Below are positions 34,701-46,700 of a stretch of DNA of 64,000 nt, in pieces. Both the position numbers and the translations under genes were made by a program. The stretch is from NCBI GenBank assembly GCA_012295275.1, contig CM022670.1, forward strand, positions 7,502,001-7,566,000, given 5' to 3'. Under the pieces are notes generated by a model. The model had not been told where the DNA came from and ran no database searches. It saw nothing but the letters and a program-made list of their open reading frames with translations. This stretch comes from Chrysomallon squamiferum. Taxonomy: Eukaryota; Animalia; Mollusca. Position 1 is the stretch's first letter, and each line of letters opens with the position of its first letter.

Positions 34701-37700
34701 GAAATACCTTAAAGAATTTCAGTTTCAGTATCCATATGTTACGTGTGTTAAAGAAATCTTTGTTAAATATGACATAAATTATTTTCTTTTATTCCATTTA
34801 TCACGATAATGTAGCATGTTAGATATTTTTATTTGTCTTCAATGATTACGCAAAAGACGCACGGAGAGATTAATGAGGTAATTAGCTTTAACTAAATTTA
34901 CAATAACAAAATGTTGTTTTTCTCTTATTTTAATAAATGTCACGAACTACTAAGACATGGGGCGATAACTCTGTATTCTCGGTTGGTTTTTATTTCTTTA
35001 CATCTAGGATGGATGCGGTGCATAATTTAGTATAAAGTGCTGCTGCCCTGCAGTGCATTTGGTTTACAATGAGTTTGTCCATTACAGTTTTTTCTTGTTC
35101 TAACCAGTGCTCCTCATAAACACAACTTAAAGCAAACTCTTTGGAAACAAAGAGTTCTCGTTCGTTATTTTTATTGCCATTAGCATTATCATAAATCCGT
35201 GGCACAAAAATATGTTGATGGCATCGTAAAATAAATTACTTTTTCTTTGTTCTTAACACAACTGCATACTTTTGTAGATCCACCTATTAGGTTTATGGAA
35301 AAGGGGCCACCAGGAGCAGTTAATGGTATAACTAGTGTGGGTGGTGGCCCTCTTTTGAAAGAGGTTGAACGAGTAAGAAGTAATTTTCCAGAAACCTGGC
35401 TCTGGTCTAATAAAACAACAGGGTAACATGAAAAACAGATTTTGGAAATACACTTTTTTTCTTAACCTAAGACACAACAGAGCTTACTGAACGCTTTCGT
35501 GTGAGCTTTTGTTGTCTTCCTTCTTTCTGTAATTATTCAATTTTAAAAACAGCAAACAAATCGTGAGAAGTCGTATAAAAATGAGATATTCTAACTTGCA
35601 ATGGAAAGCTCAATTTTGTCATATCCGTTCTCTCTAACGTTCTACATAAAATAAATAAATAAATAAATAAAATATAGAACAATTCAGGACAAAGTTATTT
35701 CTAATAACGAACAATTAAAGTTTGTTATGATTGCATGAGATAATAAACCATAATGGCACTATATATTTCATCTCTAAGTTATATACCCAATAAACTTCAT
35801 CAAGTTTAACATCACAACCGATATATATTTGCGAAAAACACAGCTAAACATAAAAATATTTATTTTTCGGTAGAAAAAATAAAACAAAAACGAATAGAAA
35901 AGAAAATATAAAATTTTAAAATAATTAAATAGAAATAAAATTAGTTATAATAAAAAAAAAAAAAAAAAAAAGAAATAATAATTTTCATTGATTTCTTCAT
36001 TATAATCATCATTCTTTATTATTTTATTATTATTATTATTATTATTATTATTATTATTGCTGTTGTTGTTGTTGTTATTATTACTCTTATTACACATACT
36101 ATCAACATTATTTATTTATTATTTATTTATTTATTTAATTTACAAGTATTTTCACCATAAGTACTTCGGACATTAATCATTATGAAGTCAAAACGATTAT
36201 ATCACGATGTCTGCCTGCTGTCGTAGATATCCTACACACAGGACGTATTTAAACCTCTCGTCTACGTCATCAGCTTTGTTTTGTACAGTCACATCAGTCG
36301 AAGTATTTCTGTAGATTTTGATGCGTTTAGTAGTCTTTCTTTCTAAGTACATCATAACTGTACATGTTTATAATTGTGTATTGTTCTAGTTCCACCGCTA
36401 ATGTTACCAATGGCAGGGCTAGGACCAGGAGGTGGTTTGATGTACTCTGTTCAGGGTACAAACACTGGACAAAGTAGTTTGAAAGAGGTGGATCGAATTC
36501 GTACTAATTTTCCTGAAACTTGGCTCTGGTCAAATAAAACTATAGGGTAATCATAGAAGAAAAAAAATGTATTTTTCCTTTCATTATATATAATATAAGC
36601 TTGTTTGCTTCTTTCGGTTTCAGCCCTAATTTTTTTTTTTTCTCTCAGTTCGTGCCGTTCTGTCTCTAACGCCTTTCAGCACATACAGTCTTTCCAAGTG
36701 TTATTTTAATTTCGTTTCAAAGAAATTACTCGTTACAGTCAGTCTGAAATGCATTCAAAACTTTATAATAATTAGCTAAGGAATCAAATGACAAAACATC
36801 TGTTACAAAAATCAGTTATATGATAAAAATTATAACACAGTAGCGGTATCGCTTCATCTTTATGGCCGGAATCCTCATTAAATAACGTCTTCCGTCTTTC
36901 GAAGATAAACCTTTTACAGAATATATTTGTGATCTGCAGTAGCTGTGTGTATTAATTACTCTGCATATGCAATATAAACCTGTTTTGTAAGTATATTTGT
37001 GATGATATATTATTGTAGTCCCTCCGATACTTGAAGCCATGCTACCAATGCCAGGAACAGTTCCTGGGATGTCTCTAGACGGTATGTTAAACTCTGAACA
37101 CGGTAGTTTGAAAGAGGTGGAACGAATTCGAACTAAATTTCCTGAAACTTGGCTCTGGTCAAATAAAACTGTAGGGTAAATATAAAATGAAATCTCCCAT
37201 TAAACACATACCTTGTTTTAAAATAGTCATTTGTTTTTCTGTCTCTCGCGCTGCTTTTCTTTAAGCTGGTCCTCTCGCTTTCACTCAAACACTGATTTCT
37301 ATTTCACTTTCAGTGTTCTCCTTCTAATTAGAAAAAAAAAATGTCATGCTCCCCCTCTCTCTTTCTTTTTCTTTCTCTCTGTTTCAGAACAGAATTTGTT
37401 TTGTTCTCAGTCCTGTGTCCCTTACGCCTTTTAGCACATACAGTCTTTCATTTTCCCCCTCAGTCAGCTTATCTTTTTACTTCGTTTCAACGAAACTACT
37501 TGTTATAGTCAGTCTGAAATGCATATAACTAGCTATGGCATCAAATGACTTAACATCAGTTATAAAAATTAATTATATGATAATGTTTATAACACAGTAT
37601 CCGTATCGTTTCATCATTATGGCGGGAATCCCCATGAAGTACATACTTGAATCTTCCGTCTTTCGAATGTATTTGGGTCTACAGTAGCTGTGGGTATTAA

Positions 37701-43700: not shown

Positions 43701-46700
43701 AGTTCATAATTCAATATAAGATATGGCTGTGAGCTTTTCAAAGACGACAGTTGATATATTTAATCATATTCAATCTGGCAGTTTCGTTCAAATGAAAATG
43801 TCATCATTATATTCTCTGTAGTTTCATCTTGTCCATTCTGTGATGGCTTCTTAGAGAAGGGTATCGACGGAATTCCTCCTCCTGGAATGGGTTCTGGATT
43901 CGGATCTGGATCTGGGATGGGTTTAAAGGAAGTGGATCGTGTGAGGAACGTCTTTCCAGAAACCTGGCTTTGGCTTAATAAGACTGTTAGGTAGAAAAAC
44001 AAATCCTACGTTTTATATTTATATCACCTATTCTCCTGAGACCTTCCAGTTTTGTGTCTTATACTAAAGCTAGGATCTAATTTAATGTTATTTTCCATTT
44101 GTTTATATCCAGTTCTCTACCACCAGTCGTGCTTCTATAGTATTGTAATTGATTATTCAGATCCCAAATTTCCTGTGTGGAATCATCTTTTTCAACATTT
44201 TCCTCTGGCTGTGGGAGGTTTGGGTGGGAACAGCATTCGGCCATCACCTATGACACACCCACAAGGCGGGTCTGGATCCCTCCAGGAGGTGGATTCAGTT
44301 AGACACATTTTCCCTGAAACATGGCTTTGGACTAATATGACTGCTAGGTATTAGTTTTTATTTTTATATATTACTGCGCGCATAAACTCTTCTCTCAAGC
44401 AGTAACCAACAACAACAACAACAGCTGTTAGGACTGTTATGATGATGGCGATGACGATAAAAGAATAAATAAATACAATTTTACTTAAATGGGTGCTATT
44501 TTCTTTGATAATCTCCATCGGCAGAAAAAAATCTAAAAAAGAAATTAAAACAAATAAAAATAAAAACTGGTTCTAACAACTAACAGAAATATTTATTACT
44601 ATTAGGTATTTTTAGCGAATAAACTCTTCGCTTATTTCTAAATGCTACTTATCTATGCACTAATTCTGCAGTGCCAGTTTTCACATCAATATAACCTCCC
44701 TTTAGTCCTGTCACACTTATCTCCCTTATACGTCTCACCTGCTTTGGTCTTGCTTCAGAATACATTTTTTTCTTTCTCATAACTGCAATAAGTTTATCTA
44801 TTTTTCTTCTTACTTTTTTTTTTTTTTTTAAATTTAAATACTAATTAAATCAGTTTATTTAATCTGTATCGTTTATATAAATATTAATTAAAGTTATTAA
44901 ATTTTCACTAGTCAAAAGTAAAATACATTTACAAACAATATTAAATGCTTCAGGTATTTAAAAACACATTTAAATTTGATTAGAAGATATTTGTTATACT
45001 TTGACATCATATACACTATATAATAATAATAATAATAATAATAATAATAATAATAATAATAATAATAATAATAATAATAATAATATTAATAATAATAATG
45101 TGTTTTTACTTAAATGTTTGTAATTCTGTATTTCAGTACTGACGGACGGACAGTCATCACGACCACAGTACCAGACACAATCACATCTTGGGTAGCCAGC
45201 GCTTTTGCTGTTAGCACAACGAAGGGATTGGGTGTGTCCCCTACTTCTGCAAAGGTAATAACGGAATAAATAAAAAATTATACGAATAATAAATCAATAA
45301 ATAAATAATGTAAACAGACAAGATTGGCAATATATATATATATATATGTGTGTGTGTGTGTGTGTGTGTGTGTGTGTGTGTGTGTGTGCGTGTGTGTGTC
45401 CCGAAATAATAACTACAACAATTTATTGTTTTATTTTATTTTATTTCATATATTATTTCATATAATATGAACCTTTAATCGTGAAAAGTATCAAGTGACC
45501 TTTATATTATCATCATCATTATCACTATTACTATTTTATAATGATGCCACGAAAAGGAAATCGTTTTGTCACTACTCTCTCTATCACACTAACAGATTAG
45601 GAAGCAGAGTTGTAACTGATAGCAACTGTTTATTTTCAGATCAAAGTCTTCCGTCCTTTCTTCGTTAGTCTGAACTTACCCTACTCCGTCACGCGCGGAG
45701 AACACGTCGTGCTGCAAGCCATTGTCTTCAACTACCTCGCCCAGGATGTCGATGTAAGATTCTCTATAAATCTGACACTAAGATATACTAGTATACGTCA
45801 ACTGGAATTAAGACAGAGATGTGCTCAAATTATACACTATTGTATTATCTAGAAGCCTGAAAATGATTTATAGATTGTGTCGTCATCGGATAGTCAATCA
45901 TCAGTTATCTTATGTAAAATAAAGTTACTGTAGTTAACATTTTAAATATTTTGATCTCCGTGACAAATGCATGTGACTCCTTTTTGTAGTAGATTCCTGA
46001 AATTGCGTGATTTTCGAATTGAAATTTATGAATTGAAATGATATCTAGTTGTTTCAGGGAATATTATTTTGAATTAGAAAACAATTTTAATCAATGTTTT
46101 ATACTTTTTTTTCTTTTATAATATTTTGTTGTCTGTTTTTATTTGTTTCTTTACTGGTTCTTGTCTCTTTTTTCCTTTCGTCCCCTCCTTTGTTTAATTT
46201 TCTTTTATAGTTCATTCATTTTTTCTTTCTTTTCTCGTATATTCTTTGCTTATTTTGCTTTTTGATTCTTTCTTTCTTTCTTTCTTTCTTTTTTGTTTTT
46301 TTTTTTTTACTTCTTTCTTGTTCATTCTTTTTCTGTATCCCGTTCTTTCATTCTTTTTTCTTTCTTTCCGTCTTTCTTCTTTTCTTGTTTCATAATTTCT
46401 TAGACTATGTTTTCTATCATCCTGAGAATACATGACGTTACATTTTCGGTTTGTGATATAAAACGTAATTTGATTTAATAAAAGGAAAATAGGTATGAGG
46501 TTTCTACAGTTGTTATCGTGACAGATTTTGTCTTCCAGGTGGTAGTGTCCATTCCTCAGTCATCAGACTACCTCAACATCGTCGTCAACGCCAACGGACA
46601 GGAGAGTACCGAGTCAAAGGATCAGATGGAAACAGTTCACGTATGTAACACGAGTAGTAGTAGTAGTACTTGTAGTAGTAGTAGTAGTAGTTGTAGTAGC

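Follow-up and report, generated by a model that had tools for sequence, protein, structure and literature searches.

A probable cassette of nine mutually exclusive bait-region exons in a thioester protein gene of the mollusc Chrysomallon squamiferum

Background

Among the closest described systems is BgTEP2 of Biomphalaria glabrata, in which 12 mutually exclusive exons are spread over 30 kb (Duval et al. 2020, PMC7016707; the gene is named TEP-4 in PMC9363628). These exons stand in tandem, encode the variable or cleavage region, vary at the 5' end while the 3' end is conserved, and were missed by ab initio prediction. CfTEP of Chlamys (Azumapecten) farreri, as cited in PMC7016707, possesses six such exons and seven isoforms with pathogen- and sex-specific expression. 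In Drosophila Tep2, five alternative exons encode the hypervariable region (PMC5489563, PMC6071210). The biochemical significance of such regions is best illustrated by human A2M, where the bait sequence sets protease selectivity (PMC8267569).

An initial annotation, made from the letters alone, had proposed that nine mutually exclusive exons diversify the bait-like region of a thioester protein encoded within a 64,000 nt stretch of the Chrysomallon squamiferum genome (hereafter the window; contig CM022670.1, positions 7,502,001 to 7,566,000). Our analysis indicates that these exons are probably spliced as a mutually exclusive cassette, which supplies the bait loop of a secreted thioester protein, and that each choice likely sets which proteases cut the loop and so expose the thioester.

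Results

The host gene and its product

A script-built exon model, guided by tblastn with a Haliotis homologue, comprises 35 coding exon positions, of which the array is position 18, and encodes 1429 aa with exon E1; all its introns are GT-AG. The tblastn match runs collinear along the whole gene, in the A2M/MG scaffold order of known members. The main features are:

25755..55109, + strand: host gene, iTEP/CD109-like thioester protein (script-built model)
33387..33398, + strand: furin-type processing site RRKR, preceding the bait region (ORF translation and model)
48579..48593, + strand: intact GCGEQ thioester motif, in an exon matching PF07678 (TED, E=2e-15)
49655..49657, + strand: His in [11 protein letters not shown], also present in the sequences of Haliotis, the BgTEP2 cluster and CfTEP
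53857..53860, + strand: one-base frameshift (one extra base) in exon 53796-53944, seen as a split tblastn match
55071..55100, + strand: C-terminal CxxCxxCxxC, with the stop at 55107-55109 (host gene model)

Judged by its sequence, with an intact GCGEQ in the TED and a collinear A2M/MG scaffold, the product is a member of the thioester-containing protein superfamily. The RRKR motif is also present in the Haliotis homologue, and the conserved His occupies what we take to be the site of the catalytic His of C3-type thioesters. The N-terminus is hydrophobic and collinear with Haliotis, as read from the sequence rather than by a signal-peptide predictor. The model ends in [13 protein letters not shown], with six Cys within the last ~115 aa; the stop follows directly after the Cys stretch, no GPI/TM tail was seen by eye, and the model contains no C345C domain. 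Mollusc iTEPs are defined by a C-terminal six-cysteine signature and by the absence of C345C and of a GPI/TM tail (PMC7016707, PMC5989330), and on these features the host protein appears to be a secreted iTEP of the BgTEP1-4 type. It lacks both the GPI-anchor signal of CD109 sensu stricto and the C345C domain of complement C3-like proteins. The frameshift may be an assembly error or a null allele and, if real, would truncate the protein.

Anatomy and frame logic of the array

The array lies between two constitutive exons, and all of its members are on the same strand:

34046..34103, + strand: upstream constitutive exon, ends in phase 1; donor of the RNA joints
35278..35422, + strand: E1, FMEKG type, 145 nt; RNA joint, and 3' loose end matching exon 45137
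36390..36546, + strand: E2, 157 nt; RNA joint
37019..37175, + strand: E3, 157 nt, recent duplicate of the E3-E5 unit; open, TAG/GT
37751..37928, + strand: E4, 178 nt, AAG acceptor; open frame, 169 of 178 nt identical to E5
38558..38741, + strand: E5, 184 nt; RNA joint, and 3' loose end matching exon 45137
40282..40414, + strand: E6, FRETWLW, 133 nt; open frame
42970..43108, + strand: E7, 139 nt; open frame, RNA loose end
43822..43990, + strand: E8, CPFCD (CxxC type), 169 nt; open frame
44161..44347, + strand: E9, His-rich, 187 nt; open frame
45137..45254, + strand: downstream constitutive exon, one lead base, continues Pfam A2M (PF00207, E=1.3e-9)

All nine were found with the places and lengths first annotated, each bounded by AG/GT, 3n+1 long and open between the flanking constitutive exons. 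Their alignment has 10 invariant columns, nine of which fall within the 3' block L.E....R..F.ETWLW. The 3' end of the alternative exon falls just within the beginning of Pfam A2M and corresponds to residue 15 of the C3b alpha' chain, in agreement with the proposed bait-region position. A DNA profile of the 3' ends gives the nine exons, on which it was trained, E<=6e-17, whereas no other site of the 64 kb falls below E=0.59; neither this nor a protein profile found a tenth or degenerate copy there. Two exon-like stretches spotted by eye near 39.4 and 42.3 kb had no score with the profiles.

When all 512 exon subsets were translated, only the nine single-exon choices were open. The argument from frame shifts had overlooked that subsets of four and seven exons (n=162) are in frame, yet every one of them contains stops, as do all 502 multi-exon subsets. 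The array has the tandem homologous exons of equal phase, compatible only with a single choice, that mark a mutually exclusive cluster.

The exons E3, E4 and E5 share their last 75 nt, and their flanking introns are 83-93% identical over aligned columns. The acceptor of E4 is AAG, as against TAG in its paralogues. Several of the nine exons have in-frame alternative acceptors; RNA joints confirm the chosen acceptors of E1, E2 and E5, while resemblance to abalone and mussel variants favours those of E7 and E8. Array introns measure 170-2555 nt, which would exclude steric hindrance as the basis of exclusivity.

Splicing seen in RNA

The RNA evidence comes from one run (X1) of one study, in the form of contigs, which lose rare forms, compared along the stretch with E1-E5; E6-E9 lie outside it. 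Run X1 contains the GT..AG joints 34103->35278, 34103->36390 and 34103->38558, i.e. those of E1, E2 and E5; their shorter arm spans 28-30 letters, which does not exceed the length below which the tool advises caution. The loose ends found at 35422 and 38741 are identical to the first 27 nt of exon 45137; because the last 75 nt are common to E3 and E4, the latter is an end of the E3-5 type and not for certain that of E5. A further loose end joins the 3' end of E7 to exon 45137, and a contig of the same depth that also joins from 34103 suggests its 5' junction. E1, E2, E5 and E7 are thus seen spliced in X1, each singly, and no joint between two alternative exons is listed in this run. This supports the proposal of one exon per mRNA, and the use of several exons speaks against a locus in which a single exon is ever chosen.

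The claim that one locus makes nine effectors went further, with four exons seen in RNA and E3 and E4 unseen in X1: the unique parts of both have no cover in this run, the apparent cover of E4 being fully explained by a misplaced E7 contig. Run X2 has cover in all 30 bins and none of the X1 joints, while runs X3 and X4 of the same study gave no exon signal, only short intronic repeat matches. A profile search for short proteins returned 279 matches, and among the 120 listed there was no near-identical copy of a window exon and no spliced form.

The working repertoire could accordingly be smaller than nine, with E3 and/or E4 being silent or rarely used recent duplicates, or with copy number varying between individuals. 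Besides the missing cover, the AAG acceptor of E4 points this way, as does an X2 contig in which 37326 is spliced to 38918, so that E4 and E5 would be lost. But contigs demonstrate presence, not absence, and this X2 joint could reflect the intron of a paralogous unit placed on the wrong copy (the regions are 83% alike). Moreover, all nine frames are intact despite diverged 5' parts with in-frame indels, and we regard a reduced repertoire as possible though rather unlikely.

Homologues and bait motifs

A tree of 44 rows (quick mode, midpoint root; to our knowledge without BgTEP1, BgTEP3, BgCD109 or insect TEPs) groups the host gene with the multi-isoform genes of Haliotis (SH-aLRT 100) and places both, together with the BgTEP2 cluster, in a clade of gastropods (99). 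This clade is sister to a bivalve clade with CfTEP; the SH-aLRT values of the grouping are 100/99/99, with 89 at the joint node. The host gene is therefore likely to belong to the BgTEP2/CfTEP orthology group, in species-tree order. Public abalone, oyster, mussel and clam annotations (RefSeq models) contain up to ~10 variants each, and the statement that known cases have fewer variants was mistaken, because the 12 exons of BgTEP2 were already published (PMC7016707).

Of the 236 near-full-length homologues that were fetched, 225 contain exactly one bait block, which also supports mutually exclusive use. Gastropods and bivalves have several short bait motifs in common (EKG in 5/8 lineages, corrected p=0.003; GFL.G in 6/8; C.FCD in 3/8), which suggests that some bait exons are ancient. 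When the window exons were aligned one by one to 13 species sets, 11 of 117 comparisons reached p<0.01 uncorrected, most of them on Gly/Pro/Met-rich matches, with none flagged for E6. The best match of E8 is the Mytilus variant NSCPFCDG; a by-eye match of E7 to Haliotis YLYTIDKAV was not the best match of that exon. E1 alone found no relevant match among solved structures.

The recurrence of these motifs fits poorly with a fast arms race, and the variants might not be tuned to pathogen proteases at all, serving instead tissue- or sex-specific roles, responding to conserved proteases of the animal itself, or altering the sensing of ligands, metals or redox state (the CxxC of E8, the His-rich E9). 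CfTEP offers evidence in both directions, as cited in PMC7016707: some isoforms are sex-specific in the gonad, but the induction of the remaining ones depends on the pathogen. The variable parts are for the most part low in complexity and unalignable across classes, however, and the conserved motifs may just as well be targets of conserved classes of microbial protease. On balance this explanation seems doubtful to us.

Search for a docking element

Four tests compared the pairing of candidate docking sites and selectors with that of constitutive introns. The search yielded one weak candidate:

44428..44460, + strand: TGA-rich candidate docking element in the last intron; duplexes with sites upstream of E1-E5, not significant

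Duplexes of ~22 bp (-22 to -27 kcal/mol) are possible between it and sites that precede E1-E5 by 79-143 nt, and RNA structures of the Dscam/Mhc type that enforce exclusivity are common in insect clusters (PMC6071210). Its max-T p of 0.071 (last intron, upstream) nevertheless comes from one of four tests (last/downstream 0.232, first/downstream 0.136), the element resembles a TGA repeat, pairing upstream of E6-E9 is weak and dispersed, the E3-E5 sites are not independent, and pairing with a site ahead of E1 would leave every exon in the loop. We consider a docking role of this element improbable. The first/upstream test gave p=0.001 at 34824, a candidate we rejected: the duplexes reach only -8 to -12 kcal/mol in T-rich sequence, so the contrast likely stems from pyrimidine-rich control segments. 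The search produced no convincing pairing of docking and selector sites, and it revealed no selection step for exon choice.

The joining of several exons into a long multi-bait loop is excluded in the host gene for canonical splice sites by the stops and the lack of alternative-to-alternative joints described above, and has next to no chance of being correct, the few annotated models with 2-3 blocks in tandem (4 of the 236 homologues, plus Nucella P0092; P0035, P0092, P0096, P0106 and P0134 are the models concerned) being probably merged gene predictions.

Discussion

The reading that we prefer remains a mutually exclusive bait cassette. By analogy with the biochemistry of A2M, C3 and CD109, furin would cut at RRKR, a protease would cut within the Gly/Pro/Met-rich variable 5' part of the chosen exon, and the conserved RxxFPETWLW end would serve as a fixed structural strand; cleavage would then drive a conformational change, upon which GCGEQ would tag the protease or a microbial surface. 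That exon choice tunes the response to proteases is likewise suggested by A2M. Since every product with other than a single exon contains a premature stop, nonsense-mediated decay could clear all errors, and a selection step, by RNA pairing or splicing factors, probably acts too. The array probably grew by tandem duplication of exon-plus-intron units, the latest giving rise to E3-E5.

The array may predate the split of gastropods and bivalves, with some exons (the EKG, CxxC and HGFLxG classes) individually orthologous across molluscs. It would then be an ancient, fixed germline panel of sensors and not the quickly changing repertoire of an arms race, overlaid by turnover within single lineages (E3-E5, possibly polymorphic copy number). 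We advance this tentatively, at somewhat short of even confidence; if true, the CxxC exon would contribute a bait gated by redox state or metal. An even greater age of the array is hinted at by gene models of a chiton and of amphioxus that contain several blocks. We found no statement on ancient orthologous bait exons in the open-access literature, and the accessible parts of PMC9334734 and PMC12568711 contain nothing on TEP splicing.

The arrangement is already published for the likely orthologues BgTEP2 (12 exons) and CfTEP (6), and the window locus is a further instance of this mollusc mechanism, of use mainly for annotation. Its value is in comparison: with the sets of its relatives it offers a natural series of baits, all on an unchanging scaffold, with which to ask whether invertebrate splice diversity really changes protease specificity, a question left open by Duval et al.

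Compared with more distant systems, the array resembles that of Drosophila Tep2 by description; the insect gene, which is outside our tree, has far fewer exons overall. Human CD109 (8s3o) is the best solved-structure match to the Haliotis homologue (E=6e-264) and has a GPI tail, which the window protein lacks. In humans, CD109 and A2M have one fixed bait exon set. Within molluscs, CfTEP falls in the same orthology group and its fetched isoform proteins (n=6) carry one bait exon each; no CxxC variant is among these six, whereas the window gene has E8. BgTEP2 differs in extent (12 exons over 30 kb against nine over 9 kb), in its conserved block (F[VS]ET[FW] against FPETW) and in that all 12 exons were recovered from transcriptomes, against 4/9 here. 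The nearest full-length relatives are the RefSeq 'CD109 antigen-like' sets of Haliotis rufescens, H. cracherodii and H. asinina, at 69% identity, with an identical exon position and 7-10 distinct variants (10 in H. cracherodii). E1 resembles the Haliotis variant YPVRYFEKG and E3 resembles PPIFESM (p<=0.007 uncorrected), while the window gene lacks the HGGFLMGG and Arg-rich variants of Haliotis and has a recent E3-E5 triplication. Together with abalone, oyster, mussel, clam, scallop and Biomphalaria, the locus shows that ~5-12 bait exons have been retained in one and the same gene throughout Mollusca, with some motifs shared.

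The exon array and its reading frame

The nine homologous exons that the initial annotation placed in the thioester protein (TEP) gene (E1-E9; 35278..44347, + strand) proved on inspection to have the predicted places, lengths, AG/GT boundaries and 3n+1 phase; the array is real and was correctly read. Exon alignment reveals a common 3' block, L.E....R..F.ETWLW (bait block), preceded by a variable Gly/Pro/Met-rich 5' part. No tenth copy was found in the 64 kb by DNA and protein profiles, both of which recover the known nine, and E3-E5 are products of a recent duplication of an exon-plus-intron unit.

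The claim that the frame requires single-exon use was upheld when all 512 subsets of E1-E9 were inserted between the constitutive exons 34046-34103 and 45137-45254: the reading frame is open in nine, the single-exon subsets only, while 126 four-exon and 36 seven-exon subsets regain the frame, yet contain stops. Nonsense-mediated decay (NMD) is argued in PMC6071210 to be no sufficient safeguard once a cluster exceeds three exons; however, since multi-exon subsets carry stops, such policing would be possible in principle here. Steric exclusion as the basis of exclusivity is ruled out by intron lengths of 170-2555 nt across the array. A search for docking sites yielded one weak candidate (44428-44460), which pairs 79-143 nt upstream of E1-E5 (p=0.071); a second hit was composition-driven and discarded.

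Host gene and neighbouring genes

A script-built model of the host gene runs from 25755 to 55109 and comprises 35 coding exon positions, with GT-AG at all introns and 1429 aa when E1 is used. The N-terminus is hydrophobic and RRKR precedes the array; the model also has GCGEQ, a C-terminal cysteine stretch and a His at what we take to be the catalytic position of C3-type thioesters. A GPI tail and C345C are absent from this 1429-aa model. The predicted protein fits the definition of secreted mollusc iTEPs in PMC7016707 and PMC5989330. An extra base at 53857-53860, in a conserved late exon, disrupts the frame and would represent either an assembly error or a null allele.

A constitutive exon matches best a Gigantopelta aegis fragment (83%), followed by Haliotis (64-67%), which would probably place the source organism among gastropods close to neomphalines and vetigastropods. 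In the Haliotis homologue, Pfam A2M begins at residue 707, within the alternative exon, and residue 700 onward aligns with the C3b alpha' chain from residue 15; the variable part thus sits at the bait/activation position, as had been proposed.

The following neighbours were found:

778-1328, +, final two exons of a TEP paralogue (66% and 52% identity to the array gene C-terminus, Cys stretch included)
11911-13500, +, MFS_1_like transporter gene, 529-aa open frame
56638-57936, Cys-rich 432-aa ORF, no Pfam match
58060-59853, +, secretin-family 7TM gene, long exon (PF00002, E about 1e-13)
61869-63716, -, secretin-family 7TM gene, long exon (PF00002, E about 1e-13)

The first belongs to a tandem TEP upstream of the array gene, largely beyond the window. 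The two 7TM genes are convergent with nearly identical TM halves, and the gene at 58060-59853 may have its N-terminal exon in the Cys-rich ORF.

RNA evidence

Contigs of four runs (X1-X4), two of which contain the stretch, were aligned to 34030-39100, which comprises E1-E5 only; the evidence for exon use comes from one RNA run of one study, X1, whose contigs omit rare forms. X1 contains the GT..AG joints 34103->35278 (E1), 34103->36390 (E2) and 34103->38558 (E5), and the start of exon 45137 follows as loose-end sequence behind 35422 and behind 38741, the latter fitting any of E3-E5 (last 75 nt 74-75/75 identical). A further loose end, at 37916, consists of the E7 3' end followed by exon 45137; these are among the loose ends listed, with 57 more outside the listing. 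We read it, together with a joint 34103->37883, as an E7 contig misplaced on E4, because the depth of that joint (47.7) exactly explains the X1 cover of its bin. The short sides of the joints (28-30 letters, below the 31-letter bar of the aligning tool) would fit 31-mer contig overlaps. The junctions proposed as a check show E1, E2, E5 and E7 used singly, with no joint between alternative exons among the X1 joints listed for 34030-39100. Sequence unique to E3/E4 has no cover in X1, in contigs that lose rare forms, and X3 and X4 are silent over 34030-39100.

A (CT)n tract (41504-41668) and an (AG)n tract (43312-43411) on either side of E7 form an inverted repeat of ~100 nt that could loop out this exon, yet E7 is spliced in X1.

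Run X2, of unrecorded kind, covers all 30 bins with none of the X1 exon joints. One of its contigs joins 37326 to 38918 with 13 letters between, which would remove E4 and E5; a deletion allele could explain it, as could a misplaced paralogue. X2 also differs at many sites, for example by S>N at 35335 in E1 and by N>H at 36461 in E2, the N>H change being present in X1 as well.

Relatives and shared bait motifs

That the bait block is single-copy per protein agrees with annotated near-full-length homologues, where 225/236 possess one block, seven none (by pattern match) and four two or three. Tandem arrangements of two to three blocks occur in the gene models P0134 (Branchiostoma floridae), P0106 (Liolophura), P0092 (Nucella, three blocks, additional to the four), P0096 (Tegillarca) and P0035 (H. 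cracherodii X1). Such models are probably merged alternative exons, and hint at arrays in chiton and amphioxus. Short database 'proteins' (P0253-P0372; 120 listed of 279 matches) are lone bait exons called as ORFs on unannotated contigs, several of these contigs being of equal length; the cassette is thus widespread and routinely mis-annotated. Distinct bait variants, counted as lower bounds in sets that sometimes merge paralogues or close species, number at least 10 in H. cracherodii, 7 in H. asinina, 6 in C. farreri, 10-11 in Biomphalaria, 10 in Pacific oysters, 10 in Mytilus, 8-9 in Mya and 9-10 in Mercenaria.

In a tree of 44 rows (bait excluded, quick mode, midpoint root; BgTEP1, BgTEP3, BgCD109 and insect TEPs not knowingly included), the window gene groups with Haliotis (support 100) within a gastropod clade (99) that also holds a cluster named BgTEP2. 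A bivalve clade with the scallop CfTEP (99) adjoins it (joint node 89), and the window gene is likely an orthologue of BgTEP2 and CfTEP.

An unbiased pattern scan of 74 variable parts from eight mutually related lineages (one species set each) was compared with 600 within-exon shuffles under family-wise correction. GFL.G recurs in 6/8 lineages, the window not among them (p=0.002), EKG in 5/8, including window E1 and E8 (p=0.003), AID in 5/8 (p=0.043) and the low-complexity GT.TG in 6/8; C.FCD, in 3/8 including window E8, is not significant (p=0.063). Orthology at the exon level, a motif ancestral to all duplicates and convergence would each account for this sharing, and the shuffle does not separate them; direct exon-versus-exon alignments are mostly weak. 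No report of conserved bait classes was found in open-access text, and their recurrence across lineages may be novel.

Proposed mechanism and known systems

We propose that one of E1-E9 would be selected per mRNA, that NMD would remove splicing errors, and that each bait would alter the set of proteases activating the thioester. Taken together this scheme is quite probable; exclusive splicing itself is very nearly certain, and protease tuning by bait choice is, by analogy, moderately likely. For human A2M, PMC8267569 demonstrates that protease selectivity is set by the bait sequence. PMC7016707 gives 12 mutually exclusive exons across 30 kb for BgTEP2 of Biomphalaria (a result restated in PMC9363628), and cites six exons with seven isoforms for CfTEP and five exons for Drosophila Tep2, the latter case being confirmed in PMC5489563. 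The initial annotation had credited known cases with fewer variants, which does not hold for BgTEP2, with 12 exons versus nine in the window gene; the array architecture is therefore already known, and with a larger exon number elsewhere.
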